Notes: generated by a model not told the origin, from the letters alone. Counted from the stretch's first letter, positions 5,708-55,019 are shown. The stretch is DNA of 59,778 nucleotides from a virus (IMGVR_UViG_3300021197_001267:1-59778), one strand, 5' to 3'. Made by a program: numbers and translations.

Positions 5708-6008
5708 TAAGTACGGAAGCTCTGCGTTATCACCATCGAGAATCTTTAGCAAGGCTGACTCAGTAGAGCAGTTGAAGGTTCGGATAGACGACAAGCTCAA
5801 CAGAATCTTAAACTACAACGACAGCACAGAAGACGAGGACGTTATTCAAGACCTAATCGGGTATCTAATTCTTTTACAAATAAAATTAAATGAGCAACCA
5901 AGTGGTAACCATATTCCCTTCCATACATCAAGTACAAGAACCAACGTACATCTCTCTGGGTACAGCACTGGAGAGAATCAAGAAGGGGAAACACACAACG
6001 AGGATTGA
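5634..6008 (+). CDS. DUF1599-like (nucleotide-modification associated) protein
   Basis: EKNNKYGSS...VRIDDKLNRI...EDVIQDLIGYLIL. Confidence 0.75.
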   Translation: MSKTASEKIRTQCESIAEFLVEKNNKYGSSALSPSRIFSKADSVEQLKVRIDDKLNRILNYNDSTEDEDVIQDLIGYLILLQIKLNEQPSGNHIPFHTSSTRTNVHLSGYSTGENQEGETHNED

Positions 6009-7695
6009 GAAAATCAGGGAGGGAGATAAGTCTGAGAAGACAAAGCTTCCTATCGTGTTGTTTTCTGGGGAGTTTAGTGGCAGGAAAGACGACATGCTTA
6101 AGAGGCACAGCGGTCTCATTGTCCTCGACTTCGACCACATTGACATAGACAGGGGCAAGTCTGTCATAGGCTCGGACAAGTATGTTCGAAGCTGTTGGGT
6201 TAGCCCCAGTGGAAACGGCATCAAGGCATTGGTCGAGGTGCTTGAACCATCGCGTCACCGCGACCACTTCCGCAGCCTTCAGCAATACTTCGATAGCCAG
6301 TACGGGTTAGAGGTGGATGGCACAGGCATCAACGAGTCGAGGGCTTGCTTTGAATCATGCGACCCTGACATCGTCATCAAGAACGAGTCGGATGTATTCG
6401 TTGGCATGGTGGCAGAGCAGAGGAACACTGACTACGTACAGGACATCCAGTCTAAGACTGACTACGAGAAGCTGAACATCGCTGCTCGCATGATTAACAA
6501 GGCCAGCGAGGGAGAGAAGCACAGCACATTGATACGCGCATCACATCTCATCGGTGGGTATGTGGCCGCAGGAAGGATTGAAGAAGACGTTGCATTCTTT
6601 GTGCTTGAAAGAGAGATAGAGAAGCATGACGTAGATGACCTTGCCTTGGCAAGAAAGACAATCAAGGATGGCATTGCTCACGGCAAGACCATGCCCATCA
6701 AGGAAATCATTGAGGACGAGGAGAAGATTAAGAGAGACATTCTCTTGCAAGACGGAGACATGTCATTCGTCTCGTCTGACGACTCAGACTTTCAGTGGAT
6801 TGATGACTACAGGGAGGGACGGATTGAGGTTGGCTTGTCGACGGGCAACACAAGGGTAGACAACAACTTCAGATTCAAGAAGGAGTTCGTAATGATAAAC
6901 GGACACAGCAACATCGGCAAGACAACCTTCACGTTGTTCATGATGGTGAGTGCCAGCATCAACCACGGATGGAGGTGGGTTATCTACAGCGCAGAGAATA
7001 GTACAGCGGCTATCAAGATGAAGCTAATGCAGTTCTGTCTGAACAAGCACATCCAGTCTATGGGCTATCAAGAACAGAAGAGAGCTTACGAGTGGGTGAA
7101 AGAACACTTCATCATCCTGAAGAACGATGAGGTCCTGAGTTACACCGACGTGTTGTTGTATGCTGAGAAGCTTCACAGACACAAGGCTATCGACGGCCTG
7201 TTCATCGACCCGTACAACAGCCTTCGCATTGATGGCATGAAGGGCAAGCACCTCAACTCTCACGAGTACCACTATGAGGCAGCCTCTGACTTCTTGACAT
7301 TCAGCAACAGGCTAGGCGTGGCGGTGTGGGTAAACGCTCACAGTGTTACGGAGTCACAACGACAGAAGGATGCTGATGGATACCCAAGAGCTCCATACGC
7401 GGAAGACACAGAGGGTGGGGGTAAGTGGGTGAACAGGGCAGACTGCTTCATCACTCTTCACAGAAAGGTCCAGCACGTAGACCCCAACGTTCGCTTCACA
7501 ACAGAGATGCACGTGCGAAAGGTTAGAGAGACAGATACAGGAGGTCAGCCAACCCCATTCGCAGAACCGTTGTACTTCAGCTTCAACAAAACACACAGCG
7601 CATTCAATCTGGAGGGCCCAGTGCAGACTTTCTTTTCTCCACTAGGTGAACAAGTAGTTGGCAAACAGGCGTCTATTCCCCCTCATCTATTGTAA
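5890..7695 (+). CDS. primase-helicase (VirE-N/BT4734-like primase domain + DnaB/RecA-like helicase)
   Basis: KTKLP..FSGEF...HSGLIVLDFDH, WVSPSGNGIK; Walker A GHSNIGKT, Walker B LFIDPYN. Confidence 0.85.
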   Translation: MSNQVVTIFPSIHQVQEPTYISLGTALERIKKGKHTTRIEKIREGDKSEKTKLPIVLFSGEFSGRKDDMLKRHSGLIVLDFDHIDIDRGKSVIGSDKYVRSCWVSPSGNGIKALVEVLEPSRHRDHFRSLQQYFDSQYGLEVDGTGINESRACFESCDPDIVIKNESDVFVGMVAEQRNTDYVQDIQSKTDYEKLNIAARMINKASEGEKHSTLIRASHLIGGYVAAGRIEEDVAFFVLEREIEKHDVDDLALARKTIKDGIAHGKTMPIKEIIEDEEKIKRDILLQDGDMSFVSSDDSDFQWIDDYREGRIEVGLSTGNTRVDNNFRFKKEFVMINGHSNIGKTTFTLFMMVSASINHGWRWVIYSAENSTAAIKMKLMQFCLNKHIQSMGYQEQKRAYEWVKEHFIILKNDEVLSYTDVLLYAEKLHRHKAIDGLFIDPYNSLRIDGMKGKHLNSHEYHYEAASDFLTFSNRLGVAVWVNAHSVTESQRQKDADGYPRAPYAEDTEGGGKWVNRADCFITLHRKVQHVDPNVRFTTEMHVRKVRETDTGGQPTPFAEPLYFSFNKTHSAFNLEGPVQTFFSPLGEQVVGKQASIPPHLL

Positions 7696-8380: not shown

Positions 8381-8922
8381 TGAGTAGCTTTCATAAGGCC
8401 AACAGAGCGGGCAAGGAAGGCGAGCTTATGTGGGAGGACCACCTCAAGAAGGAGGGGCACAAGGTGCTCCGCTCAGATGACGTTAGGGGTGATGTCAACC
8501 TATACTGGGACCTTGAGACAGACTCAGGCATTAGGTACGAAGTCAAGTATGATTTGAGTGCTTACGATTACTACCACAAAAGACCCGACCAAACCTGCCC
8601 CAATCTTTTTATTGAGTGCTGGAGCACGGTAAGGAATGAACCATCAGGGTTGTACTCAAGCCTCGGAGAGGCAGACATCTTCGTGTATATCATGAAGCGT
8701 ACCGACAAAGAGGGAAGACATCTTGGGAACTACGCATATTCTTTTTGGTTGGAGCCATTCCTTGTTTGGGTCGAGACTCAGGATAAGATGAAGGGGTTAA
8801 GAAAAGTCTCTTGTTCCAACAAGGGAGACAATAATGCAAAGGGGTGGCTCGTTGGAGAAGAACTGGTTAACGAAAACAAAATCCACAATGGATACATCAA
8901 CAAAATTGAACTCGGTAAGTGA
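8380..8922 (+). CDS. putative PD-(D/E)XK nuclease-fold protein
   Basis: GKEGE...WDL...YEVKYD...NLFIE...PSGL...ADIFVY pattern. Confidence 0.6.
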   Translation: MSSFHKANRAGKEGELMWEDHLKKEGHKVLRSDDVRGDVNLYWDLETDSGIRYEVKYDLSAYDYYHKRPDQTCPNLFIECWSTVRNEPSGLYSSLGEADIFVYIMKRTDKEGRHLGNYAYSFWLEPFLVWVETQDKMKGLRKVSCSNKGDNNAKGWLVGEELVNENKIHNGYINKIELGK

Positions 8923-9196
8923 CGTCTTCTTTGAGGCTATGAAGGCTGACCGTCAAGATAGAATCATGGAGAGTCTTGTGGCGGAAGAAGCTTTGCTTGC
9001 TGACGGATTCGAGGACGCACTGGTTGGGCACACGCAGGGTCCAAACCTAGTTGCCGTCTATGACTATGACATCTGCATTCAAGTTCTTATGGACAGAGAT
9101 GAGATGAGTTGCATGGACGCAGTTGAGTTCATGGACTTCAATGTCCTTGGTGCATACGTCGGAGAGAAAACACCAGTCTTCGTGTCATGCAGATAA
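8888..9196 (+). CDS. conserved phage hypothetical protein
   Basis: ADGFEDALVG...VAVYD...AVEFMDFNVLGAYVGEKTPVFV motif recalled from aquatic phages; start uncertain. Confidence 0.7.
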   Translation: MDTSTKLNSVSDVFFEAMKADRQDRIMESLVAEEALLADGFEDALVGHTQGPNLVAVYDYDICIQVLMDRDEMSCMDAVEFMDFNVLGAYVGEKTPVFVSCR

Positions 9197-9390
9197 GAGA
9201 CATCCCGTCCCCAGAAAAGAGAGCTCAAGTGCACGAGCTTCTCAGGTTGAATGCTGAATATCAGGCAGCCAATGTATGCGTCACTAATTCAGCAGCTCGG
9301 CAAAAAGAAATCAATGACCATTGTTACAGAGAGTTCATTGCCCCAATGAAGGACATCTGCACGGGGTTCTTCAAATCTATTTCAACGTAA
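9187..9390 (+). CDS. hypothetical protein
   Basis: 67 aa, last gene of the replication block. Confidence 0.55.
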   Translation: MQIRDIPSPEKRAQVHELLRLNAEYQAANVCVTNSAARQKEINDHCYREFIAPMKDICTGFFKSIST

Positions 9391-9444
9391 TGGATTATAT
9401 TTGAATCGTTACACAGGGATGGCGCTGTGGAACTTCGCTACTAG

Positions 9445-9482
9445 AGGGGGTTGAGCAATAGGCTCGCCCCCTTTTTGTTTTT
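9445..9482 (+). terminator. intrinsic terminator
   Basis: AGGGGG-TT-GAGC-AATAG-GCTC-G-CCCCCT followed by TTTTGTTTTT. Confidence 0.75.
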
Positions 9483-9511
9483 GTAACTTGCCATACTAAC
9501 CTAATCAACCA

Positions 9512-11398
9512 ATGAGACACTTCTTTCTGATGCTTTCCCTTGTGAGTCAGGTAGTTACGGCGCAAGAGTGCCTGGTACTGACCCCAGATGTTTTGCCCAT
9601 GGGCTACTCCAGGTTCGCTGTTGACCTAGAGTCGACGCCTGTCGAGACACTACCCGTGGTGTTCCATGTTGTGCACACTGGTCTTGGAGATGCGAACAAC
9701 ATCTCCGATGAGCAAATAGAATCGCAGGTGGATGTTCTTAATGAGACATTCCTTGATAGCAAGATTCAGTTCTGCATGGCGAGCCGCACCCCTGGGGGAG
9801 TGCCTACAAATGGCATCACAAGATTTGATGGGGGCGTATGGAGCAGCTACCTCGAAGATGGCGTAGCCCAGGGGAGCCCAAACGGTATTGAAGATGCAAC
9901 GCTGAAAGCTTCGGTCGGCTGTTGGAACCCTGATGAATACATCAACATATACGTGGTGTCTGAAATCAACGGTAACAACGGGGGTAGTGGTACTCAGGGG
10001 TACGCATACCTCGGCCCCACTGGTGACTGTAGGGACGGCATCGTGGCCCTGTACAATACAGTAGGCAACGTTGGAGAGCTTAAGCAAGGAAGGGACTTGG
10101 GATACACGGTTGTCCATGAGGTTGGCCACTACCTCAGTCTTTACCACACCTTCTACAACAGCAACGACTGCGAGGAGTCTAACTGTGAGACTCAGGGAGA
10201 CAGGGTGTGCGACACGCCACCTGGATTGGCTTCTAACGGGTGCTCCAATACCTGCCCTGATATCAACGGAAGCAACTACATGGACTACTCGTCACAGAAC
10301 TGCAAGATTGAGTTCACTGAGGGGCAGGCTTGTAGGATGCACGAGTCTTTACAGGGGCCAAGGTCTGCTCTGGTGGTGTCTCCTGCGTGCTTGCCTGTGG
10401 TTGCTTACGACATGACGCCATCCACAGCATACTATCAAGAGCAATGGTGCACTCCTTATCAAGACATCTGGGTGGAGGTGATTAACCAAGGGGTCCAGAC
10501 CATTCCCTTTGTCGACGTGACTCTGTATTGCAACGGTCTCGAATATCTGGAGACGCTCTTTGATGTGGCACCAGGAGGCTACTCGGTCTTCTTTGAGCAG
10601 GTTTACATCGAAGATGCACAGATGTTTGAAGTTCAAACGGCAAGCATTGATGACTACCCAGACAATGATTACGCATCGTGGCCGTTAGAGACTGTAGTGG
10701 GCGACCTATTCAAACTATACGCAGACATCGACACGTGGTCTAATGAGCACAGCTGGATGCTGTTGGATAGCAATGGTGATATCGTAATGGATGACGACTA
10801 TGGTTTCAACGAAGATGGTTTGTACTACTATGAGGCTTGTGTCTTTGACGATTGCTACACATTTGTTGCAGAGGACTACGCTGGCGATGGGTTCTGTACA
10901 GCGGACTTCGGGGAGGAGGGGTGCGACATTGGTAGTGATGGATACCTCGCCATGATAAATCAGGAAACCATTATCTCTATGCCATTTGGATTTGAGTTTG
11001 AGGAGTTCTCTCAAGACTTCTGTAACACCCTGCCAGCCTGTGAGTTAGACTACGACGGCAATGGTTCCATTGGAAACGGAGACATCTTGGTTATGCTCAG
11101 CGAGTGGGCTTGTGACTTTGCTTGTCAGACAGACCCTAACAACGACGGCATCGTAAACGTCCGAGACCTTTTGTACATGCTGTTTAACGTAGGTGAATGT
11201 GACATCGAGATAGAGGATGACTTCTCTGTTGGTACATACATCGACCTTGTGGCAGATGAGGGCATCAATCTGGGAGGTAGAAAGCCAAGAGTATTTGACA
11301 TTCTTGGCAGGGAAATTGATACTCCTTTTGAGCAGCTTGCAACGGGAGTGTATATTTTGAAGTGGAAGAACAAGACAAAGAAAGTATTCGTGCAATGA
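9512..11398 (+). CDS. secreted pappalysin-family (M43) zinc metalloprotease with dockerin-like Ca-binding repeats and T9SS type A C-terminal domain
   Basis: Signal peptide ending VTA|Q; LPVVFHVVH, ISDEQIESQVDVLN, YINIYVV, GYAY, HEVGHYLSLYHTF, GDRVCDTPP, Met-turn NYMDYS; DYDGNGSIGNGD/DPNNDGIVNVRDLL; terminal VFDILGREI...GVYILK...TKKVFVQ. Confidence 0.9.
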   Translation: MRHFFLMLSLVSQVVTAQECLVLTPDVLPMGYSRFAVDLESTPVETLPVVFHVVHTGLGDANNISDEQIESQVDVLNETFLDSKIQFCMASRTPGGVPTNGITRFDGGVWSSYLEDGVAQGSPNGIEDATLKASVGCWNPDEYINIYVVSEINGNNGGSGTQGYAYLGPTGDCRDGIVALYNTVGNVGELKQGRDLGYTVVHEVGHYLSLYHTFYNSNDCEESNCETQGDRVCDTPPGLASNGCSNTCPDINGSNYMDYSSQNCKIEFTEGQACRMHESLQGPRSALVVSPACLPVVAYDMTPSTAYYQEQWCTPYQDIWVEVINQGVQTIPFVDVTLYCNGLEYLETLFDVAPGGYSVFFEQVYIEDAQMFEVQTASIDDYPDNDYASWPLETVVGDLFKLYADIDTWSNEHSWMLLDSNGDIVMDDDYGFNEDGLYYYEACVFDDCYTFVAEDYAGDGFCTADFGEEGCDIGSDGYLAMINQETIISMPFGFEFEEFSQDFCNTLPACELDYDGNGSIGNGDILVMLSEWACDFACQTDPNNDGIVNVRDLLYMLFNVGECDIEIEDDFSVGTYIDLVADEGINLGGRKPRVFDILGREIDTPFEQLATGVYILKWKNKTKKVFVQ

Positions 11399-12396
11399 GA
11401 AAGCTAATTCCTTTTCTGATTCCACTGCTCAGCTTTGGGCAGTGTGACATGGAGATTGTTGGGTTCAACCCCATCTCTACTGACTTAACTATCGCAGTCA
11501 ACGGTGCGCAGTGTGGTGCACCAGCAGACAGCATCGGTGAATTTATCTTGGCCCTTACGTTCAACCCACCCCTAGACGATAATCCTTTCCCTTGTTTCTA
11601 CGATAACGGTTGGGCACTACTCAACTTCCCCTTGGACTTCCCTGGGTTTGAGATAGGTCAAGGTCCTGACAACATCTTACAGGCAGGTGATACCATCACC
11701 TTTAACCTACTTGATACACCATGGGCTGGCAGTGGGGCTGCTCCTTGTTGGATTGACATCTTTCAGAGCGGTTCCTACTACGAGGAATGCTTGGTCATGA
11801 ACGTGTTTCAAATAAATGACAGCGACAACATAACTGGAGAGCCAGGACTTGGAGGATTCCCGTACCCCGACGAAGACATCTTCAACAGCTGGATACAGTG
11901 GTCTCTGAATGGGGCCTGTGACCCACCACCCCCGCCCATTGTGTACGGATGCACTGACATGTTTGCATACAACTACAATGAGTTTGCAACACAGAGTGAT
12001 GGTGGATGTATCTATCAAGGATGCTTAGACCCAGACGCCTTGAACTACTGTGAAGAGTGCACGGTAGAGGGGGAGTGCCTGTACCTTCCTGAAGAAGGTG
12101 AGGACTGCAGCGACCCTCGTGTCTACACCCCAAATACCTTTACTCCTAACGGAGACACTCTTAACGACTACTGGAAGCCAGTGACTCGCAGTGAGTGCTG
12201 GTGGCGGTGGGAGTGCAGGGTCTACAACAGATGGGGTACGCTAGTGTGGGTTAGCTATGACCCTCAGGACAAGTGGCTTGGCAACAGGCTGGGTGCATTT
12301 GTACCTGATGGGGTGTACACCTGGACTATTAAAGCATCTACTTGGGAAAGCCAGAAGGTTATAGAGATGGCTGGAAACGTAACGGTCTTCCGTTAA
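11395..12396 (+). CDS. secreted protein with GCxDxxAxNY repeats and T9SS type B (gliding motility-associated, CHU_C) C-terminal domain
   Basis: Signal peptide ending SFG|Q; GCTDMFAYNY and GCLDPDALNY; PNTFTPNGDTLND, VYNRWG, PDGVYTW, GNVTVFR; ATGA-coupled to the protease. Confidence 0.88.
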   Translation: MRKLIPFLIPLLSFGQCDMEIVGFNPISTDLTIAVNGAQCGAPADSIGEFILALTFNPPLDDNPFPCFYDNGWALLNFPLDFPGFEIGQGPDNILQAGDTITFNLLDTPWAGSGAAPCWIDIFQSGSYYEECLVMNVFQINDSDNITGEPGLGGFPYPDEDIFNSWIQWSLNGACDPPPPPIVYGCTDMFAYNYNEFATQSDGGCIYQGCLDPDALNYCEECTVEGECLYLPEEGEDCSDPRVYTPNTFTPNGDTLNDYWKPVTRSECWWRWECRVYNRWGTLVWVSYDPQDKWLGNRLGAFVPDGVYTWTIKASTWESQKVIEMAGNVTVFR

Positions 12397-12701
12397 TCAC
12401 AGTCCTTTTGACGCAACTCGTCTACTAGAACCTTTAGCTGTTCCACATCCCTCTCTACGTGATTTAGTCTTAGGTTCTGCTCTGCATCGTCAGGCAAGCT
12501 GCCCATCTCCCCACGAGGCCACTTAATTCTAAACTCAGAGTTAAGGTCAATCTCTTGGTTGTGACGCATCGTGTCAATCTCTAGCTTGTTTAGAGCAGAC
12601 ATGATTGTGAAGTAAAGAGTAACAGCGGCCCCTACACCCACAACGATTTGCACCATCCACTTAATGTTGATGCCGAGGTTGGTGTTGTCGTCTATATTCA
12701 C
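12393..12701 (-). CDS. single-TM coiled-coil protein in the lysis region
   Basis: TM WMVQIVVGVGAAVTLYFTIM then coiled coil; stop overlaps the convergent + strand stop at TTAA 12393-12396. Confidence 0.65.
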   Translation of the reverse strand: MNIDDNTNLGINIKWMVQIVVGVGAAVTLYFTIMSALNKLEIDTMRHNQEIDLNSEFRIKWPRGEMGSLPDDAEQNLRLNHVERDVEQLKVLVDELRQKDCD

Positions 12702-12907
12702 TCCACCTTATTCTTAGCCAGAAGTAACTTGATTTCTTGAATGTCCTTGAGCAACTGCTTAACGTCAGCCTTGAACTCTGCGTTGTCCGCTTCGAGGGCG
12801 TGCACACGAGAGCTCAGTTTCGCATAGTCGTTTTGAAACTTTACCCAGCCCACAACTAGGGCACTAGCTACGGTGAGGAATTCAAAGTGGCTCAAGTTTT
12901 CTAACAT
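12698..12907 (-). CDS. small TM coiled-coil protein (holin/spanin-like accessory)
   Basis: N-terminal hydrophobic helix, coiled coil, lysis-gene context. Confidence 0.6.
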   Translation of the reverse strand: MLENLSHFEFLTVASALVVGWVKFQNDYAKLSSRVHALEADNAEFKADVKQLLKDIQEIKLLLAKNKVE

Positions 12908-12912
12908 ATCTC

Positions 12913-13044
12913 TTATCCGCTACAAGATTCACAGTCCTCTGGGCTGTCGACATTGCACGTGATAGTACCATCCTTGAGCTTCTGCTCCTGCTCTTGCAAC
13001 TTATCCTGGTCAAGGAAGTCACACCCAAATTCTTCTTCTCTCAT
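12913..13044 (-). CDS. 43 aa acidic microprotein with C-terminal CxxC (not in ORF track)
   Basis: MREEEFGCDFLDQDKLQEQEQKLKDGTITCNVDSPEDCESCSG*; ATGA overlap with the holin stop; fills the gap to the next gene. Confidence 0.7.
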   Translation of the reverse strand: MREEEFGCDFLDQDKLQEQEQKLKDGTITCNVDSPEDCESCSG

Positions 13045-13481
13045 TTTCTAGATTTCTCTATGGTTCTACCAGCAAAATATGCACCGAAAGAGGTTAGCAT
13101 AAGTATCTCTAACAAAGATACATAACTCGCTTTTACATTAAAGGGCAGATAATCAAGTGAGTCCGCTACCATAGTGCCCATAAACATCACCATCAAAGCA
13201 ATCAAAGTAACTGGCCTGATATACTTGGCCAGCTTTATGTCGCTACCCATGTCCGCCTTCCACCTCTCGGTTACGTTGTTTTGAAACTCTACCTCCGCAT
13301 CAATCTGTGCTTTGATTTCTTCTGCGCTCAGGTCAGGCTCTCTGTCAAGTAGGTTCTTAACTACCCCGAGTCCTCCGCTGTCGGGCAGCAGGTCTCCTAC
13401 TGTGTCAAGAACTCCTGGTGCGGCGGTCCTTAGCCACTGGCCTAGCCTTGTGTCCCTTATCTTTTTTTTCTTCTTCTCCAT
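13041..13481 (-). CDS. putative holin (GTA-3TM-like)
   Basis: VTERWKADM.SD...KYIRP plus two C-terminal TM segments ending YFAGRTIEK; follows the endolysin. Confidence 0.7.
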   Translation of the reverse strand: MEKKKKKIRDTRLGQWLRTAAPGVLDTVGDLLPDSGGLGVVKNLLDREPDLSAEEIKAQIDAEVEFQNNVTERWKADMGSDIKLAKYIRPVTLIALMVMFMGTMVADSLDYLPFNVKASYVSLLEILMLTSFGAYFAGRTIEKSRK

Positions 13482-13941
13482 CGTAATCAATGTATGTGAT
13501 AGTTACTTCCTCACCTTTGTCCAGAGCCTCTGCAATCCTTGGGTACACATCGAAGTAAGCTTGCGTGCTCCTGCCAATAAAGCCATTGCTGCTCTTGACA
13601 TTGGACTCCTGAGTTTCCCCAATGAGAAGGCAACCAGCAGTGTGCTCATCAGTATTCCCACAATGAATAAGTATGTACTCAAAAGAAGGTACGTCAAGAA
13701 CCCAGAGCATGCCTTTGTGAATATCCTGAAAACGATGGGCATACCTGCTGTGAAAGCCGCCCACTGTTCGTAGGCCAACTCGATACGTTCCAGAGGGGAC
13801 ACGAGTTTCGCCATCCACCTTTTCATTTCTTTCCTCATCTTCTAGTGTGTAACACAGGAACTTCCTGCCGTTTGTTGTGTCAAATAAAATGCCTGAGGTC
13901 GAGTCCTCTTGGCTACTGATTCTTAAAACTTCTAGTTTCAT
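13405..13941 (-). CDS. putative endolysin, DUF5675 family
   Basis: CYTLE, TRVPSGTY, ILIHCGNT..HTAGCLLIG. Confidence 0.75.
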   Translation of the reverse strand: MKLEVLRISSQEDSTSGILFDTTNGRKFLCYTLEDEERNEKVDGETRVPSGTYRVGLRTVGGFHSRYAHRFQDIHKGMLWVLDVPSFEYILIHCGNTDEHTAGCLLIGETQESNVKSSNGFIGRSTQAYFDVYPRIAEALDKGEEVTITYIDYDGEEEKKDKGHKARPVAKDRRTRSS

Positions 13942-16900
13942 TCTGTTAGATTGTAGTACATGCTCTCTTCAAGGGTGCCGCTACGCATGCCTGCCATGTA
14001 GATGTCCGCAAGGTTTTTGAACTCCTTGAACTCATCAGCAGACATAGCATTCTTTCTCTTGTTGATGATAGAGAAGTAATCCTTTGCGTCGCCAGCATTC
14101 ATAAAGATACTTCTGATATCTCTAATATGAGTCGAGTATCCATCCATCTTCCTCAAGCTAATTTCAATAGCCGCATCCTTAGCCCCCTTCTTAAATTTAG
14201 AAGCAGCCTTTTCTGCATCGTATGGTGAGTAGTTAAGTTGCTCTTGAAGGATGCGTTGGAATCCCTCTACCCCTGTATCCTCACCTAGAACTTGCATGAG
14301 TTCTTGGTTGTTGGATAGCATAGCCTTGGAAATCATTTCGTAACCAGCAAGCTCTTCTTCTGAGCGCAATGACCGCTCCCTCGGTAGGTCATCCATGCGG
14401 CGAGCGAGGATGTCAATCTCTTTGGATGAGAACCCAGACATCTGCCCCATCGCAAGCATGAACTTCATGGCAAAGAACATATCCATTTGCTCCTTATCCT
14501 CTGGCCTCACAAAGTATTCTCTGCCTGTAGAAGAGTAGACCTTGTTGCCATCTTCCATTAGGTTCTTCAGGGTGTTCCCTGCGTCGGTGACAAACTCCCC
14601 ATATGGCCCCATGCCCACCTTAAGCAAACCACTTGCAGACAACTCGGGGTTGCTGTTGTATGTGGGTATTGTTGCCGAGGTGTTCTTCCAGCGCTCATAC
14701 CTTTCATCATAACTCTCACCCTCCAAGAATCCTGGCACACCATCCATTCCTTCTGAAAGGGGGAATAGCATGTACTTGTTAGTCATCTCTTTTACCACGT
14801 CCTCCAAATAACCAATAGGAGGGAGTGGATTCATGTCTGCTAACACACTGCCAACGATATCCAACAGCTTACTGTCCTTGTACTTTGACTCCTCTTCATC
14901 GTCCTCTACAAATAGGGATGCGATAGCTGGGATTAAGACCTTACCGATAGCGTGGAATGCAGACAGCTCTGCAAGGTGTCCAGCCATAGCAATCGCACCC
15001 TCCCGTCTTGTCTTAGAGTCATCCCGCCTTCCTCGAAGGTCAAGCTTATTGAAGTCAGAGTAGATGCTTCGCTTCTTGTTTACAGCAAATCTTGCAAAAG
15101 GAAGGACAATGTTTCTGACGAAGTCGACTAAAGGCCCCATGGCCCCAGAGGTATCCTTGTAAATATCTGCTGCTTGGCGTGGCGTAGATGCCGCCTGGTC
15201 CTTAGTTACCATAGAGTCTGCATAGCTAAGCGCATCAAGGTCTGGTCGAGCTGCTTGCTCATCCCAGTTAATGTCGTCAAAGCTATCAGCCAGTCCCTCC
15301 GAGAGGAGGTAGTCTCCATAGAATGTAAACCACGACGCTACGGCAGCCACTTTGTCAGTAGACTTTAGGTTCTGTAGTGATAGGTCTTGAAGTTTGTCTC
15401 TTGTCCTAACAAACCAGCTAGTCTCTGTATCAATAGAACCAGTGTATGGGTCAATGTTTCCCGCTTCATAATCTCTAGAAAAAACTGGGGAGTTCTGAAG
15501 TAGCTTGTACCTTCCGTTTGCTTCAAGGGCAAGCTTAGAGTCAGTGAGCAATCCGTTCCTTAAAGCAAATGCGAAGAGCTCACCTACAGTTTGAATCATA
15601 TACGGGATAGACTGAACGGGATTCTTCGTGTTGGCCATCGTACTGATGAGCACGGTACTTTGCTTGAGTGTCTGAGTAAGTACACCGCCAAAGGCCTTCA
15701 CGATTACGGCGTTCTTAATTGTTTTAATAGGGTTTCTAAAAGTCTTACCCCCATACGTAAACCTAGCCTGAAAAACAGGAGGCGCACTTGCAGAATCTTG
15801 CGTGATGTAGTTCATCAACTTTGTGTGCAGCTGATTCTTTGTGCCGTCATCAGGAATGAGCTTGGCTAACTCCTCGCTTGAGAATACAGATTGAAGAGAC
15901 ATCACCTCACCCACAGTGTTTGATAGAATAGTATTTTCTCTGAGCGTTCGCTCGTTAATACTAGTAAAGTTGAGACCAAGGATATTCCCCGTGCCAGTAA
16001 TGCTCTTTGGGTTTCTCTCAAATGAGGAGCCTGCTGTTTTCTTAGCATTAGAAAGCGAGCTACTACGCATGCTGTCCATAATGGCCTGCCTCATCTGCAA
16101 TCCCTCATCAACAGCTTCGTTCTTTACCTTCACCTTAACGCTGAATGGCGTGTAGTTATTCTCTCTCGTGAGGTTCTTCCCGAGGTATCGCTCAACATAG
16201 TTCGCAAACGAATCTTCAAGCGTAGAGTGTACCCCAGCCATGAAGTCAACCATCTGAACAAGGTCAGGTCTTTCTGTCTGCACCTTGGCCAGTAGGTCTG
16301 GCAGGTTCTTCTCTGAGAACAGATACTCAAACGCTGCCTCCATCTCAGCTAAATCTTTGTCTGAGTAAATTTCACGCTGCTCCCTGTAGTGGTCGATACT
16401 GCGCCGCGTTGCATCTCTTAATGCGAGATACCACTCTGCCTCGTTTTGACCAGGTGCTCCCTCTTCAAGGACGGGCATCTGCCTAGCCATGGAGAACAGC
16501 TGCATAATAGCGTTATCCAATACTGTCTTGACACTCCCGCCCTCACCCTCAATACGGTCTATCTCCTCTGTTATGGCTTCGGCGGTCATGGCGTGAATCA
16601 TATCAGCCTTCGCAAAGGCTCTCTCCATGTCAGCAAATCCAATCAACCTTCGGATTTTTGAAATCGTTTTGTTGTCCGTCTTAAAGACCAACCTCAGGAA
16701 GGAGTCAGCTGTATCGAGTAGGGAAAGGATAGGCCTGCTCCCCGCACTTACACCCTTGTTAGTAAGCTGTTCTTCAATGCCCTTGGCCAACTCGATTCGA
16801 CCTCGCACGCGAGCAGCTAGATAACCCAGCCCCATGACTGAGTCGTTCATCAAGTAATCGTCAAGCTTAAACTCTAGGTTCGCTAGGTGAATCTTGTCAA

Positions 16901-19900
16901 GCTTCATCAGCCTATTGATTAGGTCCGAAGCATTGAATTGGTCAAGGCTATACACACCAAGAATCTCAGCAATATGACTGTCTTCAAGAAGCTTCTCTAG
17001 GTTGAAGGCAATCTGCGGCAGCAAAGCATCTCTTATGATTGCATCCTTAGACTGCTCCTCCAGGAGCGCTTTGTTCTCAGCGAGTTGCTCCAGCACATAC
17101 TCTACGTCAGCAGGGTTAGCGGGGTCAAGAGACAGCTCAGGGTTGTCTTCGATGAAGCTAAGGATAGCTCTCCTGGTGGCGCTAACTTTGCGAAGCTTTG
17201 CCGCCTTAACAAGTGCTTCGTATTCGTTCTCAAAAGAAGTTCCGTTCTTCTCGGCAGCCGCCTTAGCCTTAGCCACCATCACCGCGTTACGTCCTATCTC
17301 TTCGAGGGCTATGAACTTATCGGCAAGAGACATGAGGGCTTCGACTGACCTCCTCGCAGGCACCTGAGCCACTACCCTCTCTTCCTCTTTACTGAATACT
17401 GTCTTCACCTTTGACACAGAACTCACGGCGGAGTTGAGTGTGTTGATGAAGTCCTGTATATCCGTGGGCGACAGCAGAGATGCGTTGATTCCAGACAGTC
17501 TCCTTAGTACCCTGTCGTAGGAAGCAACAGACTTAAGCGCCTCTCCCTTCTTGCGCTTCTTGGCTGCACCTCTTAGTCTCTTTTGGAGCTTGCGTGCCGC
17601 ACTAATAGAAGCCAAGTAGTTTCTCATGGCTTCTTTGGCATCCTGCTTATCGAAGATATCAATCAGCTTCTCAACAAACGTATCCATAACCTCGGCCTCC
17701 CCCTCCTTCTGAATCCTCTTGGCAGAAGACTTGTGTGCTTGCCTAACAATCTTAAGGAGTCTCTGAATGTCCTTGTTGCCAAAGGGCTGCTGACCCCTGC
17801 CCTTCATCCTTTCATCCACAAGCTTGATAGCAAAGGACAAGAACTCCTCTACGGTTTTAGACTTGTTCTTAAGCTGGTCGAGTTCTTTCTTAAGAGCCTT
17901 GGCCTCTGTGCTAAGCTCTCTGTTTCTTTTACCGAGGGTCTCCTGAGCCTCCCTGCTTGCCATCTTTTTTCCTGCAGTTCGCCCCTCCTTGTAAGCCTTG
18001 GCATTGGCATACATCGCCTCTGCGTTTTCTTTGCTCATGCCACTTGCAATAAGTAGCTCCATCACCTCCTTCTTTTTTCTGTTCCATAGCTCGCTTTTAG
18101 AGGGCGTAATAATAAGCTTTCCACGCTTAGTCACACGCGCTCCTGGAGTAGGAGTTGAAGGGTCAACCATGTCGGCTATGAGCTTCATCAAGTTACCCTG
18201 AGCCTTACCTCTATTGATAATTGACTCAGACTTGTCCATCGCCAAAACGTCTCTAGTGATAGTGTCAATAGGGACGGGTGTCTTAACAGTCATCCTACCC
18301 CACGTAGCCTGACCCATCCCCCCCATCATTTCAAAGGCGTTAGGAGTTATGAGTTTGCGCTCCCCCTTGCTGTTGGTGTACATGTCACCTATCTCTAGAC
18401 CACGGTTTACTGGGTTGGTACCCCTGGTAACAAGCGTGCCAGGAGCAGAGCGCATAGCCTTAAAGACAATAGTCTTTGGTGTCGGAGCGTTGGGGTCTAC
18501 ATTGACTAGCTTAAGTGGGTATGAGGCTGTTGGGTTGGGGTCTTTCTCAAGCCTAACCTCAGATGAAACCTCGATAGCACCATATATATTATTAACCTCC
18601 CCCCCCTGAAGAATCTTCTCTTGAAAGAAGTCATAGAAAAAGTTCTTAAGAGTAGAACCAAATTGACTTGCCTTAGGTCTAAACCCAAAGATTCTTTCGT
18701 AGGATTCTATGAGTCTTTTCTTTTCTGCAGCACTGTCCTTGGACTTTACAGCTACTGCCTTCCCCAGGTTTGTTGCAAACTTATCTACAAACTCACGTCT
18801 CTGCTCGAACGTAGACCTATATGGGGATGCGAACTCTACGAAGAAACGCTCGAACAAATCCTCCATTTTGCCAGCCATAGAGCTGAGCTTATTTGTCCCC
18901 TTCTTGAGTGGGTTTGGCTCCTTGCCATCCTTTACCCTAGCCTCGTTTCTTTTTATCTGAGTAGTAATAGACAGTCTCTCAGTCTCGGCGACAGTATCCT
19001 TGAGCACCTTCTTGAGCTCCGTCTTGGTCAGTACATTCTGATTGACAAGCTCAAAGCCAAGGGAAGCCATAGACATCACACCATTGGTGGAGCTTTTGTG
19101 CTTCTCCCTTCCCCCGCTGATGAGTAGGAGGTAGGCCTTGCCGTCGGGTGAAGTCTTGAGCAGTTCATTAAGTTCATTGGCCATGTTGTTACCAGCGCTC
19201 TCGCCAGCCACAGCCCACACGTCACCTGTATTGGCAGAATAGAACAGCCCGCCTCCATTATTCACCAGCACTCTGTCGTCAACAGACACCGAGCCAACCA
19301 TCATGTTGTCTGGTGAGTGCGAGAGGACAGGTCTTCCCTCCAATATAGACATATCTTCTTGACGGACCACCCCCGACTTGAGCCAGTCCTCCATCTGTGT
19401 GGTGCTTGCTGCGTAGTTCAGGTCAAAGATTCCAATCTTCTGTGGCTTAACCAAAGACACTGGGTCTCCAACAAGAGCGCCTGGGCGCTGGAACTTAATC
19501 TTCTGTCCACTCACCCTACTCTTAGCCTCAAAGCGAGGGTCAGACGCAGAGACTTTAACAGCATCCTTGGCGAGCACAAGCGCTCCCACTTGAATAATCT
19601 CAGAGGCCTCAGCTAGTGGTCGGCCATCACGCTTGTCATAGAACCAGCTGTGGCGGAACGGATTCATCCCCACCTGTACCCATCCCTCCATCTTGCCCAG
19701 CTCCTTGTAGTCAGAGTTGTACTCGCTACCCTTCATGATGTCGACAGCACGCTGTCTCACCTGCTCGGGTGACTCGTTCTTGAAGTCACCAAACATTCTC
19801 GCAATAGTCTGCTTGCCCTTACCCCTTGCAATGTTGAGGGCGGCCATTGGCGTGGAGTCAAAGGTCGCGTTCGTAATCACCGCTGTCTGTCCATACCCTA

Positions 19901-22900
19901 CAGCCTTGCCGCCAAGGAACGGTGCCCTTGCTTCAGCTCTCTTGCCTTGGTGCACTGAGACAACCCACGTGTCGTAGGTGTCGTATGCTGGGATGTCTAG
20001 TCTCAACCCAACGTAGTACCCGTCAGCAATCTCTTTGTTAACTCCAATGATACCCTTGGCTACCTTGTCAGAGGTTAGCGCCGATGCCACGTCCATTACT
20101 GTTGGGACCTCAGGCACTTCTTCAAAAGGCTTGATAGGCATGTTCTCCCGAACAGCTGACACATAATCCTCTTGAGTAATTTCTCCGAGCTCGTACTTAT
20201 TAAGGACATTGAGCACTACAGAGTTACGTGTTTGTCTTTGAGACTCGGGCAACTTCATCTCCGCTCTACGTTCCTCCATCTGCTGAGCATTGATACCTGC
20301 AGCCTGCTCAAAAGAAACCTCTGCGTTTTCTGATAGCGAGAGGTCGGGCAGGGCTTGAGCCTTAGGCTTTCTTGCTCTTGCTGCCGTGGCATCGTATGCC
20401 ACCATGTAGTCATCAAACCTTTGACCCTCTCCTTTGGCGCCTTCACCTTTGACAAAGAACACTACATCTGGCTCGTCGAGCAACGGTGAGTTCTCTGCAT
20501 CCCAACCATCTGGTGCAAACTCCCTGTTAAATGCTGTGCGTGCATAGGGTTTGTACCCCAACCCAATGTAGATATCCTCTAGCTTGGTGGCAAAAGCATC
20601 GAAGAAAATCTCAACACCGTTCTCTGCAGCCCATGCTTCCATGCGCTTGAACAAAGGTTTTGTAATCCGCTTAAATCTTGTGTCTGGATTCTTGAAGATG
20701 CCACCTACGTAACCGTCCTTGGTGATGTATCCACCAGCACCGTAGTCTGCTGTCATGAAGATTTCCCCTCCGTCGTCGATGATTTGTTGTACATCGGATT
20801 CTGAAAGCTGAGTCACTTGCAAACCAATGTTAATGCCACGCTCCTCCATCATCTTCATCGCTCGGTCCATAGACCTGGCAAAATAGTTTACCCCCTGAGG
20901 GTCAGAGGCCGTGATGATGTCTCTGTCTGCTGCGTCTGCTGTTGGTCTGATAGGCTCTGACTTCTGCCTTGTCGCCTCTCCGCTATACTCACCCTCGTGC
21001 ACGTAAGTTTCCTCATACGTCCACCCTCTCTCCCGCTCCATGAACTTGATGAAGTTGTTGAGGTGACGCTCGTTCTTGAATACCCTCTTCACTGGGTGCT
21101 TGGCCTTACCACTAAGGCTTACGCTGAACACGACGGTTGCAAATATCTCCCCGCCCTCTGCCTCCATAGCCTGCGCCTTGGCTTCGTCGAAGCCATCCTC
21201 TGCTTCGTCATCCATCATAACTCCAGCACGCATAGCAATGCCTGCATAGTTGGCTCGGATAACAGCTTCGTTCAGCTTTCTCTGTCCCTCAAGCCTACGA
21301 CCTTCAGAGAACTCTTGAGTCATCTGTTGGATGGCGGACACGACGTTGTCAATCTTTGCGTCAGGAATACCCTTGACTCCAATGCGTCCTAGGTGTGGGG
21401 CGAGGAACTCCATGAACTGCCTGACCACACTCTTCTGGATGTCGATAGATACGTTGCCTGCGGTGATGTCAGCAAGAAGTTCTGTAAGGAACTCGTCAGC
21501 AACCTGCACCTTGTCCTGTTCTGTCAGAGATTTGTCATCAAGTGAGGACGTGAGGTTGCCTCGGCCGTCTCCGTAACTTGTTAAGAACTGTGAATACCTC
21601 TTAGCCAGGTTGTCAGGCAGAGCCTGGAACAACTTCTTCGCCAACCCAACAGCAGCCTTGGTCCCGATGGTCTGCAGCACGAAGTCATGATACCCCTCGT
21701 GATATGCTGTTGTCTCAAGCAAGCCTGGCAAGAACATCTTAATCTGACCCGACCCAGTCCACATCCCACGTCCCGCAGCCTCGATAGCCTCCTCCCTCGT
21801 GAGGCCAGCATCCTGCATGAGGTCTTCGATGTAAGTATCGTAGTCTCGATACATGTCAACAGCCACGTCACCCAAAGAGGACAAGCCCTTGACTACGTTA
21901 ACAGCGTTTTGCATGCCCCTCACGATGCGTTCGCCAGTAGTTACTGCCTTGGTCTTACCCTCTCCATCCACAACGGTGTGGGGTGAGACATCGTACTTGG
22001 TCAATCCTTGAATGATTTGAGCAATAGGACCTAGGTTGTCTGCCGTTACAGTAACCTTGCCCCTTCCCTCTGCAAACAGTCCGCCATAGTTGCGTCTCTT
22101 CTTGCCAGCTTTCCGTCCCTCTCTAGCCAAGATGCGGGACTCAAGCTTACCGTCTGTCTGAAGCATAGAGTCCATCTCTCCCTCAATGTTACCGCGCTCG
22201 GCCATAAGCTCCCGAACCTCCTTGGTAATCTTTCGTCTTGTATCAGAGTCCGCACGCGTGTACTGTTCTGCAAGAACCTCCGCTCTATTGTGGATATCCA
22301 CGAGTCTTTGGTAAGTCTCTGGCTTAGTCTCTGCCAGATACTCCATAACCTGTTGTCTTCTATCCGACAGCTTGGTGTAGGCATCGACAGCGTCAATAAT
22401 CCTGCGGCCAATCGTGGCTCTTTCTCTTTTAGATTCTGCCTGAGAGAATTGACCCTTAAGCTCTTCAATCTTAGCCATGGTTCTGATTAACCCAAGACTT
22501 TTGCTCGCAACGGTCCTGGCCACTGTACCTGCAGGTGAAAGCGTCCCACCCATAGCAATACCTGCCAGCGCTCCTTCTTTTGTCTGAGCCCAGAAGTCAT
22601 CATACTTCCACTCTACCGCCTCGCCACCAGCACGCATGGCGTTAATTCTAGATGTGTACTGCCACCCTGCAGTAACCCCCTCAGTAATCCCCTCTTCAAC
22701 AGCGCCAAGGCCAGCGCCCATAAGAAGGCCTGTTGTCCAGCTCTTTAAGGTTTGCTCACCAGCATCGGTCATTAAAGACTTGATGATGGCACCTCCAACA
22801 CTTTTACCAGCAAAAATCTGTGCTCCCACTGCGGCAGGAAGACCTTCTGCGATACCGCTACTCGTTACAAACCCAAGCTTCTGTGCGTCATTTAAGTTTT

Positions 22901-24187: not shown

Positions 24188-24195
24188 CAAAGATA
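24188..24195 (-). promoter_or_regulatory. Bacteroidota -7 promoter element TATCTTTG
   Basis: Exact TAnnTTTG, 5 nt upstream of the ATG at 24182. Confidence 0.6.
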
Positions 24196-41779: not shown

Positions 41780-42922
41780 TTAGTCTACTCTAATGTACAC
41801 TTCACCGACGGCGCCACCCGACCTTTGGACAAACACCATTTGACCCAGTCCTCTGACGTCATCGCCTGGAATAGGAACGTCATCAGTGTTGGCATAATCC
41901 ATAGTCATGACCGCAGAGTTATGAATAGCATTGCTGCCATTGTATTGGATTATTTGGCTAGACGCCGCCTTAGTAGCTCTCCATCCCGTTTGATAGATGT
42001 TGGCCCCTGTGCCGAGGTTGTGGTCATAGTCAAAATGTGCATCTAAGCTGGTGTTTACACCCACCTCAATACCTCCCTTGCCTGAAAGGGGGGTGCCATC
42101 CGTGGCGTTGTCATTGATTCTAACGACTTGGTCATCAACAGTAAGCGTCTCTGTGTTGAGGATGGTTTGAGTTCCCTCAACGGTTAGGTTACCGTATACG
42201 GTCAGATTTTTGGGTTGGCCATTCTGCCCGACAGATACGTTGTCCAAGAAGGAGGAGGGACCATCAACCCGCAAAGCATTCCCCGTCGCCCCCGTTTCGT
42301 AATCTACAACAAGAGTCTTTGCAATCTTAAGGTCGTCCTTCAGAGAAAAAGAAATAGACTCACCCTCGCCCCCATGATTAACCTCGCCAATAATAATCTG
42401 ATTGTCGAAAGACTCCAGGTATATTACGGTGTCGGTGCTTGGGCCGTCGAGAACAATTTGAGAATCGGCCCAACCGTAGGGGGTGGTACTGTCCGAGCTT
42501 AGGGTGTATGTCCCCACTGTTGCGGCAATTTGGCTCGTGAAATCACCCACCGACACCTTACTCGCTCCGCCCGCGCTGCCGTCGTGGAACGCAATGAAAT
42601 CCACACCACCTTGGGTGTTTGGTGTCGCGGTGGTGAGGTCATTAATGAAACCAAGATTAAGCTTAGCGGCTGTAATACCGCCGTCTTTAACCTCAAGCTT
42701 AGTGCCAGTGCCGCCGTCGCCAGTAAGTGCAAGAGTTTGCAAGTCTGGAGCCGCAGTAACCTTATCTCCTACAATTTGAATGCCACCCCCAGGGTTGACA
42801 TCTAGCGCTCCATCAACGGCATCGTAACTTACGCCCTCTCCGTTCCCAAGTGCAGACAGGTTCGAGGTGGTGATTACATCACTCAAGTCATCTTCCGTCA
42901 ATAATTTTTTCCAAGTTGCCAT
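41780..42922 (-). CDS. tail fibre protein
   Basis: VKDGGITAAKL, GNLTVEGTQTILNTETLTVDD..V.IN fibre motifs; TATATTTG box at 42940-42947. Confidence 0.7.
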   Translation of the reverse strand: MATWKKLLTEDDLSDVITTSNLSALGNGEGVSYDAVDGALDVNPGGGIQIVGDKVTAAPDLQTLALTGDGGTGTKLEVKDGGITAAKLNLGFINDLTTATPNTQGGVDFIAFHDGSAGGASKVSVGDFTSQIAATVGTYTLSSDSTTPYGWADSQIVLDGPSTDTVIYLESFDNQIIIGEVNHGGEGESISFSLKDDLKIAKTLVVDYETGATGNALRVDGPSSFLDNVSVGQNGQPKNLTVYGNLTVEGTQTILNTETLTVDDQVVRINDNATDGTPLSGKGGIEVGVNTSLDAHFDYDHNLGTGANIYQTGWRATKAASSQIIQYNGSNAIHNSAVMTMDYANTDDVPIPGDDVRGLGQMVFVQRSGGAVGEVYIRVD

Positions 42923-42953
42923 AGTACGTATTTGTGTTGCAAATATAACTCAA

Positions 42954-45181: not shown

Positions 45182-45537
45182 ACCGTGACATCTTCATTTA
45201 CCTTAAACAAGCCGTGAATCCATGTGCTAACTACGCTATCCCCATCGGTGGCTTGAAGGTCGTAAACGTATAACCCGCCATCCATTGTCATGTCAGTGTC
45301 AGGAATTTTAACCTCAAGAGTACCCGCCACACTTTGAACGTAGACTACATTCCCACTAGGAACTACTGTCGTTGCGGCTGTGTCAGAGTCCCTGACTTCC
45401 ATCTTGAATGTATATCCACTGACATCCAAAGACCCTCCTTGAGAATTCTTTACTGTTAGGACTAGCCTGAAGTCGTCACCCTTCCTGCAAGTGATGTCCA
45501 GTCTCCTTGATGTGTCTAGATTTACTGAGTTAGCCAT
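45178..45537 (-). CDS. small Ig-like (BppU N-terminal-like) fibre attachment protein
   Basis: LDIT...GDDF...LDVSGYTFKMEVR...YVYDLQ...GLFKVNEDVT. Confidence 0.6.
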   Translation of the reverse strand: MANSVNLDTSRRLDITCRKGDDFRLVLTVKNSQGGSLDVSGYTFKMEVRDSDTAATTVVPSGNVVYVQSVAGTLEVKIPDTDMTMDGGLYVYDLQATDGDSVVSTWIHGLFKVNEDVTV

Positions 45538-47974: not shown

Positions 47975-48023
47975 CCGTTGCTATTTGGGCTCTCGCAAAT
48001 ATAGCAATACTCTAGGTGACCAA

Positions 48024-54100: not shown

Positions 54101-54131
54101 AAAGGGAGGGGGCTTAGCCCCTTCTTTTTTT
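54101..54131 (+). terminator. intrinsic terminator, possibly bidirectional
   Basis: AAAGGGAGGGGGC-TTA-GCCCCTTCTTTTTTT between convergent genes. Confidence 0.7.
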
Positions 54132-55004: not shown

Positions 55005-55019
55005 GGTTTCAAAGATAAG

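Follow-up and report, generated by a model that had tools for sequence, protein, structure and literature searches.

A candidate type IX secretion cassette in phages of marine Bacteroidota: a pappalysin-type protease gene coupled to a gene ending in a type B C-terminal domain

The window analysed here is the whole of the 59,778-base IMG/VR virus record IMGVR_UViG_3300021197_001267:1-59778, for which CheckV estimates a completeness of 100%, and the element in question is a pair of genes, called A and B below. An earlier reading of the DNA alone (hereafter the sequence-only reading) had placed two intact, coupled genes after a terminator, and both are there: the two open reading frames (ORFs) lie on the + strand, the stop of A and the start of B overlap in a 4-nucleotide (nt) ATGA (11395-11398), and upstream of them a hairpin (9443-9474) runs into a U-run, with a folding energy of -22.7 kcal/mol (z -2.57; a fold as stable is reached by 6 of 200 shuffles). 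The guanine-cytosine (GC) content of A (0.497) and of B (0.502) matches that of the whole phage (0.482). We propose that the pair is a mobile phage cassette in which A is a protease and B a type B cargo for the type IX secretion system, or T9SS, brought through the host T9SS to the cell surface, and we give this reading as a whole a probability of roughly 0.6. The features of the cassette, including the predicted C-terminal domains (CTDs) that act as T9SS signals, are as follows, with protein lengths in amino acids (aa).

9512-11398, + strand: gene A, 628 aa, an intact ORF at the end of the plus-strand (replication) block
9638-10375, + strand: M43B (pappalysin) catalytic domain of A, residues 43-288
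11039-11191, + strand: two DxDxNGxIxxxD loops of A with a helix after each, residues 510-560 (helices 522-529 and 550-560 in the model)
11276-11395, + strand: C-terminal tail of A, residues 589-628, a shortened relative of the type A CTD
11395-12396, + strand: gene B, 333 aa if started at the ATG at 11395, or 344 aa if started at an upstream GTG at 11362
11440-11928, + strand: N-domain of B, residues 16-178, Cys-containing and mostly beta with one helix
11947-12087, + strand: two GCxDxxAxNY-type repeats of B, residues 185-231
12127-12393, + strand: type B T9SS CTD (CHU_C) of B, residues 245-333

Protein B is composed of a predicted signal peptide (residues 1-15), Gln16-Cys-Asp at the predicted start of the mature chain, the N-domain, a linker of the form PPPPP, a pair of GCxDxxAxNY repeats and finally the type B CTD. 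Its last ~90 residues match the Pfam family CHU_C (PF13585) with an expectation value (E) of 1.2e-13 and 51.4 bits against a cut-off of 27, and a six-frame scan of the phage gave 54.6 bits for the same family at B. The repeats and the type B CTD had both been named in the sequence-only reading; the former are present in two copies, and the latter stands above the Pfam cut-off while falling just below that of the NCBIfam model TIGR04131. In the predicted structure of B, which has a mean predicted local distance difference test (pLDDT) value of 79, residues ~240-333 form a C-terminal sandwich. Aligned with VIA-align, this sandwich matches the NucA CTD in the SprA complex (8glk_D; Z 8.9, root-mean-square deviation 2.0, 73 residues aligned of a 75-residue chain), PorZ (Z 8.8) and PorU (Z 8.2), and also 8glj_D, 8gl6_D and 8gl8_D, further substrate CTDs caught in the SprA translocon, and the CTDs of mirolase and RgpB. 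The solved CTDs of 8glk_D, PorZ and PorU are of type A. No type B CTD structure is reported to have been solved (PMC12618676).

The N-domain belongs to a rare family, which was not found in the cellular genomes searched here. Its profile drew 47 clusters at E<=0.001 from 1.84 billion representatives, the domain nearly always beginning at residue 16-30, and the longer members that were scanned (561-1231 aa) have a CHU_C end in 10 of 10 cases; a word-based search for longer proteins with this domain had returned none, which is weak evidence; the exhaustive profile search did find some. Among the best 80 of 537 cellular matches to B, all but two of which are labelled Bacteroidota, the CTD region is covered, a few matches reach the repeats and none covers the N-domain. 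One candidate for a cellular N-domain (L110) was rejected, as it matches the CTD region only. The domain has a single structural neighbour in the Atlas above a template modelling (TM) score of 0.5 (0.71), from a cluster that is 100% Viruses, and a feature search of the ESM Atlas with the same domain gave no usable match. Across the alignment of 33 homologues of B, the N-terminus is positive and hydrophobic and then runs into a small-x-small|Q motif (...G|QCD), with Q16, C17 and D18 invariant. The repeats, on the other hand, number from 0 to 5 among the homologues, and since they are dispensable in this way, a role as a spacer is likely.

Type B CTDs leave the translocon on cognate shuttles that resemble PorP/SprF and whose genes in most cases lie directly downstream of the cargo gene (PMC12618676). 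Here the gene after B is convergent, and a search of the whole phage with the PorP/SprF model TIGR03519 gave nothing at E<=1. With no such gene in the phage, B would have to use a shuttle of the host, as an 'orphan' type B substrate.

Protein A was taken for an M43 metalloprotease in the sequence-only reading, and it matches Pfam Peptidase_M43 (PF05572) with E 1.3e-16 and 61.3 bits against a cut-off of 23, the family being matched by all 36 homologues in the alignment of A. Among solved structures, phmmer retrieved ulilysin (E 1.7e-26), mirolysin (E 1.1e-19) and pappalysin-2 (E 1.6e-5), and Foldseek, given the AlphaFold model (mean pLDDT 70, with low confidence in a Cys-rich part at residues 210-267), retrieved ulilysin (E 2.5e-11) and mirolysin (E 4.5e-11) at 28-32% identity. 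The zinc site HEVGHYLSLYH occupies residues 202-212 (nt 10115-10147); its HExxHxxxxxH residues (H202, E203, H206 and H212) and the Met-turn (M257/Y259) are invariant in the 36 sequences and align to the motifs of ulilysin. In order, A comprises a predicted signal peptide (residues 1-17), Gln18, a short pro-segment with Cys20, the M43B domain, two beta-sandwiches, an EF-hand/dockerin-like pair, a linker and the type-A-like tail. A scan with A for cellular relatives kept 80 loci, of which 78 are labelled Bacteroidota and the other two are phage-like contigs of one metagenome-assembled genome (MAG).

The predicted signal peptides, said in the sequence-only reading to expose a Gln in both proteins (QEC in A, QCD in B), are conserved in the 36 and 33 homologues, with the cleavage sites read by eye. 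In A a hydrophobic stretch is followed by ...A|QEC across the alignment, and Gln18 is the consensus residue; both it and Gln16 of B come after A, G or S in most homologues. This would fit the Q-rule, under which signal peptidase I exposes a Gln that the host then cyclises (PMC5837995, PMC10653852); Porphyromonas gingivalis phages encode Q-rule proteins too (PMC10367356). Three residues past the predicted cleavage site, Cys20 of A is invariant, in a part of the model (residues 13-34) where pLDDT is below 50. Unicellular pappalysins are made as zymogens in which a Cys of a short pro-segment blocks the zinc, this being Cys23 in mirolysin (PMC8259862, PMC6949598), and by analogy A is probably a latent zymogen, whose Cys20 could act as a cysteine switch. 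The related cytophagalysin CPL1 likewise begins at a Gln (Q20) and has a putative switch at C24, together with a CTD-like last domain (PMC11674741).

In the model, two beta-sandwich domains come behind the catalytic one; CARDB is found in 5 of the 36 homologues, and a match to 3idu spans 110 columns. The two loops that come next resemble an EF-hand or dockerin-like calcium-binding pair. They are below the family cut-offs and we do not file them as a member of either family: in the C-terminal 148 aa of A, EF-hand_6 reaches E 0.011 (15.9 bits, cut-off 25), EF-hand_1 E 0.14 (12.2 bits, cut-off 25.4) and Dockerin_1 E 0.2 (12.3 bits, cut-off 22.9). Among the 36 homologues EF-hand_1 matches in 17 (best E 2.4e-4) and Dockerin_1 in 4 (best E 0.0048), again below the cut-offs.

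The tail of A had been read as a type A CTD. What stands of this claim is homology, seen between profiles, to the C-terminal two thirds of such a domain; a match above the cut-offs of the type A models TIGR04183 and PF18962 is what failed, with scores that are given where the reading is weighed. For reference we used 30 genuine type A CTDs from one Vicingaceae genome that holds 103 of them. Compared by hhalign, 30 tails and these 30 CTDs aligned with a probability of 93.8, E 1.7e-7 and a score of 37.7, against scores of at most 15.7 for 40 column shuffles, 10.7 for the reversed profile, at most 15.8 for five other segments of A, and 16.3 for the tail against CHU_C. A hidden Markov model (HMM) of the 30 real CTDs was not informative when set against single homologues of A (0-10 bits). 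The alignment joins tail positions 33-72 to CTD positions 25-78 (out of 79), is interrupted by deletions of 10 and 4 residues, and leaves the tail without the first ~24 CTD positions. The tail is accordingly related to the C-terminal two thirds of the type A CTD in a shortened form, from which the first strands and an internal hairpin are missing. Of the 36 aligned homologues of A, 30 show it strongly conserved. One tail-less homologue (P0115) has a catalytic domain that groups with the tail-bearing sequences and a C-terminal region like that of the tail-less clade, a mosaic that suggests recombination within the gene.

In regards to the relation between the two proteins, a natural fusion gives a clear hypothesis for their joint working. 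A protein of 950 aa (L160), found with the A alignment, matches residues 5-289 of A over its residues 12-327 (46% identity, E 2e-78), residues 17-218 of B over its residues 341-558 (28%, E 2e-9), beginning at the mature CDxE of B, and the CTD of B over its residues 847-950 (39%, E 6e-20). It keeps the conserved columns of the B N-domain, and its Pfam matches are M43 and CHU_C; of the CTD families CHU_C and type A, its type B CTD alone gave a match at E<=0.001. The exhaustive profile search added another fused representative (P0250, 958 aa). The two fusions have homologues of the signal peptide, pro-segment and catalytic domain of A and then of the N-domain, repeats and CTD of B, in the same order as the pair; they differ from it in being a single polypeptide and in lacking the beta-sandwiches, the EF-hand-like pair and the tail of A. 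The contig of the first fusion (L238/L239) has 29 kilobases (kb) and a GC content of 0.349, and encodes Mom, an exonuclease, a DNA ligase that depends on ATP and an endolysin-like product; the contig is probably a fragment of a different, possibly large, flavobacterial phage. The large terminase of the window phage was not found in the genome holding this fusion, and the contig is therefore not of the same phage family.

In a quick maximum-likelihood tree of the catalytic domain (109 rows, midpoint root only), the 36 phage A sequences and the fusion L160 form one group (Shimodaira-Hasegawa-like approximate likelihood ratio test 99), with L160 branching outside the 36. The neighbours of this group are cellular enzymes of Crocinitomicaceae, Flavobacteriales and Saprospiraceae. 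The tree fits a single entry into phages, and both a fission of a fused cargo and a fusion of the pair fit it. A prediction of a complex between residues 18-566 of A and residues 16-180 of B gave no answer (score 0.00, mark 0.32) and speaks neither for nor against binding.

A search for the same pair in related phages had been proposed together with the sequence-only reading, and the pair was found there. A scan of viral contigs with A yielded 42 related loci at 49-59% identity, and in those that are informative, that is with a complete A and at least 150 nt of downstream sequence, B lies directly after A in 31 of 31, the 4-nt overlap being kept in 25. There are 427 protein clusters for A and 150 for B, the listed A clusters lying on contigs of up to 66 kb. 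The pair is found in at least three settings among related phages: at the replication-lysis junction, as in the window, where it stands between the primase-helicase block and the holin; beside the large terminase, in copies that are 74-76% identical; and among structural genes. Given these several positions, the pair is best described as a mobile two-gene cassette of marine Bacteroidota phages. It has the traits of a moron or auxiliary cassette, with variable positions, a non-core status and, in one setting, its own -7 box after a terminator. Broken copies were also seen, B ending after 166 aa in one locus (L018) and A after 475 aa in another (L033), and these could be pseudogenes or assembly errors. 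The tail of A and the repeats of B are both present in 19 loci and both missing in 9, with broken genes in 2; we considered this as a sign of co-evolution and rejected it, as both states largely track clades.

The junctions of the cassette are also bridged by contigs from two independent studies, in runs X5 (8900-10086, 11071-11974 and 12222-12948) and X6 (11127-11844 and 12349-13080), and the stretch is present in DNA runs of 8 studies, mostly of marine plankton, coral reefs and viral metagenomes. In a scan of species genomes, the only close relatives were two contigs (12 kb and 33 kb) of one alphaproteobacterial MAG labelled Parvibaculum sp. The 12-kb contig is identical to the window across A and the start of B, and the 33-kb contig is a related phage (L044/L046/L158 and L045/L159). 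They are probably mis-binned phage DNA, and the label is unfit for assigning a host.

The window looks like a complete phage, with the following genes around the cassette.

5890-7695: primase-helicase (E 4.8e-136)
13041-13490, - strand: holin
45530-47974, - strand: portal (E 1.5e-195)
48024-50135, - strand: large terminase (E 1.1e-197)

A search of GenBank phages with the portal matched 87 records at 28-31% identity, from phages of Flavobacterium (68), Cellulophaga (15), Tenacibaculum (2) and Maribacter (1) and one uncultured phage, so that the hosts of the cultured phages are Flavobacteriia in 86 of 86. Neither A nor B has a family in PHROGs, structural families included, and no GenBank phage was matched when the cassette was searched by blastn; tblastn gave weak partial matches only, to one record for A and three for B. 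Two uncultured phage records of ~635-642 kb, LR745206.1 (27667-27963; 3 places) and LR756502.1 (518968-519387), matched the CHU_C region of B weakly in tblastn (E 2e-10 and 2e-7), and very large phages may carry type B-like CTDs too. Adjoining the lysis genes is a single ORF of 3414 aa (13938-24182, - strand), with a 78% identical counterpart in a related contig (L010). The stop of B overlaps by 4 nt (12393-12396) the stop of the convergent gene 12393-12701, and no terminator-like site was found between the two, so that transcripts of both strands would collide there.

Upstream of A are two features that bear on expression.

9396-9485, + strand: a small unit made of a -7-box-like TATATTTG (9396-9403), an invariant 5' stem-loop, a single-stranded stretch and the terminator hairpin
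9484-9491, + strand: a degenerate -7 box, TAACTTGC, 20 nt before the ATG of A

The consensus of the Bacteroidota -7 element is TAnnTTTG. The possible -7 box that the sequence-only reading had pointed out matches it poorly in the window itself, and what supports the claim comes from the relatives: an exact TAnnTTTG is found at the homologous place, within 35 nt of the ATG of A, in 13 of 30 distinct upstream sequences. In the replication-lysis setting the exact box begins 15 nt before this ATG, after the unit of ~80 nt that ends in a terminator. Exact boxes elsewhere in the window, all on the - strand, lie at 24188-24195, 42940-42947, 47996-48003 and 55010-55017, from 5 to 21 nt before the starts of the giant gene, the gene 41780-42922, the portal and the gene 54114-55004.

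The unit of ~80 nt is near-identical among phages whose neighbouring proteins are only ~55% identical. Its 5' stem-loop (GTTACAC...CTGTGGAAC) is invariant, its terminator hairpin shows compensatory changes, and 5 of the 19 predicted pairs stay paired through changes on both sides. It is a candidate small RNA or leader; an Rfam search of 9350-9530 returned no family, with a single miRNA match at chance level. Two oligo-dT RNA-seq runs each hold one contig of ~220-230 nt, in A (9539-9755) and in B (11439-11654, with an inverted joint). These do not show transcription, as DNA can occur in such libraries, and the absence of RNA cover over the other parts says nothing either way.

Put together, the cassette could work as follows. 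As read from the sequence, a host-type -7 promoter would give one A-B message, whose translation would be coupled by the ATGA overlap. Both proteins would pass through Sec and be cut by signal peptidase I, exposing Gln in accordance with the Q-rule, and A would be made as a latent zymogen with the Cys three residues into its mature chain blocking the zinc. B would hold out its N-domain on a Pro-rich and repeat spacer ahead of the type B CTD, and a host shuttle of the PorP/SprF type would take B from the host SprA translocon and hold it on the surface. A would exit by its own shortened type-A-like tail, or with B where the tail is missing, and the two may act as one unit, as in their fused relative. 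B may also compete for the host shuttle. The role of such a pair is a matter of speculation, the most likely one being proteolytic remodelling of the surface or surroundings of the infected cell; for instance, the removal of protein receptors or adhesins might block superinfection or free progeny. A more specific form of this idea supposes that a widespread family of marine phages divided one T9SS protease cargo between two coupled genes, and has B capture a host shuttle, and perhaps the gliding track, and so position the latent A, which would then shave receptors or adhesins while B may compete with gliding adhesins, with superinfection exclusion and altered motility or attachment as the outcome. 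We would call this form unlikely. Some type B CTDs send cargo to the gliding machinery (PMC12618676).

That the phage uses the host T9SS, as the sequence-only reading had it, is the natural reading for B, with its significant type B signal and no PorP/SprF gene in the phage. It carries over less well to A, whose tail is shortened, sub-threshold and absent in one subclade, and it is reasonable to regard the T9SS reading as strongest for B and weaker for A. Several observations weigh against the reading as a whole. B scores 34.8-34.9 bits with TIGR04131, 0.1-0.2 bits below the cut-off of 35. Pairs of type B CTDs and shuttles are reported to be highly specific (PMC12618676), so that a phage CTD of the orphan kind might be left with no shuttle to use. 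The signal peptides of A and B were judged by eye, the -7 box of the window is degenerate, and TAnnTTTG is not enriched across the window (35 found, 30.5 expected).

The remaining points against it concern the tail of A. The full-length protein has no match to type A CTD models at E<=1, and its last 100 aa reach only 12.8 bits with TIGR04183 (cut-off 23, E 0.086) and 13.6 bits with PF18962 (cut-off 27, E 0.084), covering the ~24 last residues. These models reach E<=0.1 in just 2 of the 36 homologues of A. In the six-frame scan of the phage the type A model gave 11.3 bits at the tail, and at E<=10 it also rang in 12 of 14 control genomes. The model of the tail consists of three strands (593-596, 613-618 and 621-627) with a pLDDT of ~65-72 after a disordered linker, and a 3+4 CTD sandwich is reported as essential in P. 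gingivalis (PMC11285876). The tail is also absent in 9 of the 31 loci, with A intact, and in 6 of the 36 aligned homologues, which end in '...CPEE/CPKE'.

Such a tail could be a remnant, and B the only T9SS cargo, with A either riding on B or remaining in the periplasm or outer membrane as an aid to envelope processing or lysis. This alternative survives best, although we still consider it doubtful. The shortened state of the tail, its scores below curated cut-offs and its absence from intact copies of A speak for it, as do the fused relative, whose sole CTD match is of type B, and the position of the window cassette next to the holin block. Against it stand the strong conservation of the tail in 30 of 36 homologues, its specific likeness to type A CTDs (37.7 against at most 15.7 in the 40 shuffles), and the other phages, in which the cassette lies away from the lysis genes.

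A second alternative keeps the export of A and changes its purpose: whether set free or kept on display, the protease would break down protein outside the infected cell for the latter's nutrition. In cells, the relatives of A are proteases of Flavobacteriales and Saprospiraceae that are secreted by the T9SS, cytophagalysin of the same family degrades gelatin (PMC11674741), and the cassette DNA occurs in marine plankton metagenomes, all of which would suit nutrient scavenging. Nothing in the sequence separates scavenging from surface remodelling; a lytic infection would leave little time to profit from slow digestion, and the anchoring by a type B CTD, whose cargo remains attached to PorP-like proteins on the cell surface (PMC9143113), points to the surface rather than to release. 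We regard this explanation as unlikely.

The enzyme could also digest a proteinaceous matrix or surface layer, for the escape of progeny or for access to new cells, an idea similar to what was proposed for a small zinc metallopeptidase of Maribacter phage Molly (PMC8776804). Sec and T9SS signals would imply delivery from inside the cell before lysis rather than association with the virion, and no structural PHROG family is matched by A or B, which leaves this account rather improbable. Finally, a chimeric assembly joining host DNA to a phage contig, which had been named as a possible refutation and for which the only argument is the identical sequence in the MAG labelled Parvibaculum sp., can be dismissed in view of the 42 related viral contigs, the pairing in every informative one, the junctions bridged by contigs of two independent studies, a GC content that matches that of the phage, and the presence of A or B homologues of the cassette on both MAG contigs, for which mis-binning is the simpler explanation.

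Should phages load their own cargo into the T9SS, as we propose for this cassette, infected cells would bear a virus-specified surface. Bacteroidota depend mainly on the T9SS for building their surface, for moving and for digesting polymers, and such a surface would matter for how marine Flavobacteriia and their relatives resist phages, attach to particles and turn over protein. The cassette makes a good test case: it is small, and it is common, with protein clusters in the hundreds and a presence in DNA runs of 8 mostly marine studies. B also supplies an 'orphan' type B signal of natural origin for probing the specificity of shuttles.

Among known systems, the closest characterised enzymes to A are mirolysin of Tannerella forsythia and ulilysin, both M43B, which resemble it in catalytic domain, zinc site and Met-turn. 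Mirolysin is moreover secreted, comes from the Bacteroidota and uses the T9SS. A differs from both in being phage-encoded and in having two beta-sandwiches, an EF-hand/dockerin-like pair, a shortened tail and a coupled gene B that bears a CTD. The closest architecture is that of a cellular Flavobacteriales protein (L162) composed of M43, GEVED and Por_Secre_tail (53 bits), which is 41% identical to residues 46-315 of A. Both this protein and CPL1 have full-length type A CTDs and no B-like partner, and the neighbours of the former are chromosomal. B, for its part, can be compared with three orphan cargo proteins (Fjoh_1123, Fjoh_1720, Fjoh_4934) of Flavobacterium johnsoniae, which share one orphan shuttle (PMC12618676). 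Like these and PG1035/SprB, it would be a type B cargo without an adjacent porP/sprF-like gene, the shuttle being encoded elsewhere; unlike the F. johnsoniae orphans, it is phage-encoded, its shuttle would be that of the host, and its N-domain was not found in the cellular genomes searched here.

On the phage side, T9SS signals have been reported before. In Cryophage, three genes bear type A CTDs, namely those for an endoglucanase, a GH39 and a protein with a PA14 domain, and a hijacking of the host T9SS was proposed (Bellas 2020, PMC7468147); for BACON-carrying gut phages (crAss-BACON cluster 2), proteins with T9SS sorting domains were described and read in the same way (de Jonge 2019, PMC6949934). 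These share with the present cassette that phage proteins bear C-terminal T9SS signals, whereas those earlier genes form no coupled pair and include no protease, none was characterised by experiment, and the BACON-phage passages name neither a CTD type nor an enzyme. The statement of the sequence-only reading that no characterised phage T9SS effector module is known holds in the literature searched, with the qualification that uncharacterised T9SS-tagged phage genes had already been reported. Our literature search, which covered few subscription journals and no supplements, found no phage type B CTD cargo, no phage pappalysin and no such pair, and B is the first phage type B CTD cargo within that literature. 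What is new relative to these systems is the invariant pairing (31 of 31 informative loci), the mobility of the cassette, an uncommon N-domain that always goes with CHU_C, the natural fusion and the missing phage shuttle; the cassette is a well-defined experimental candidate rather than a categorically new system.

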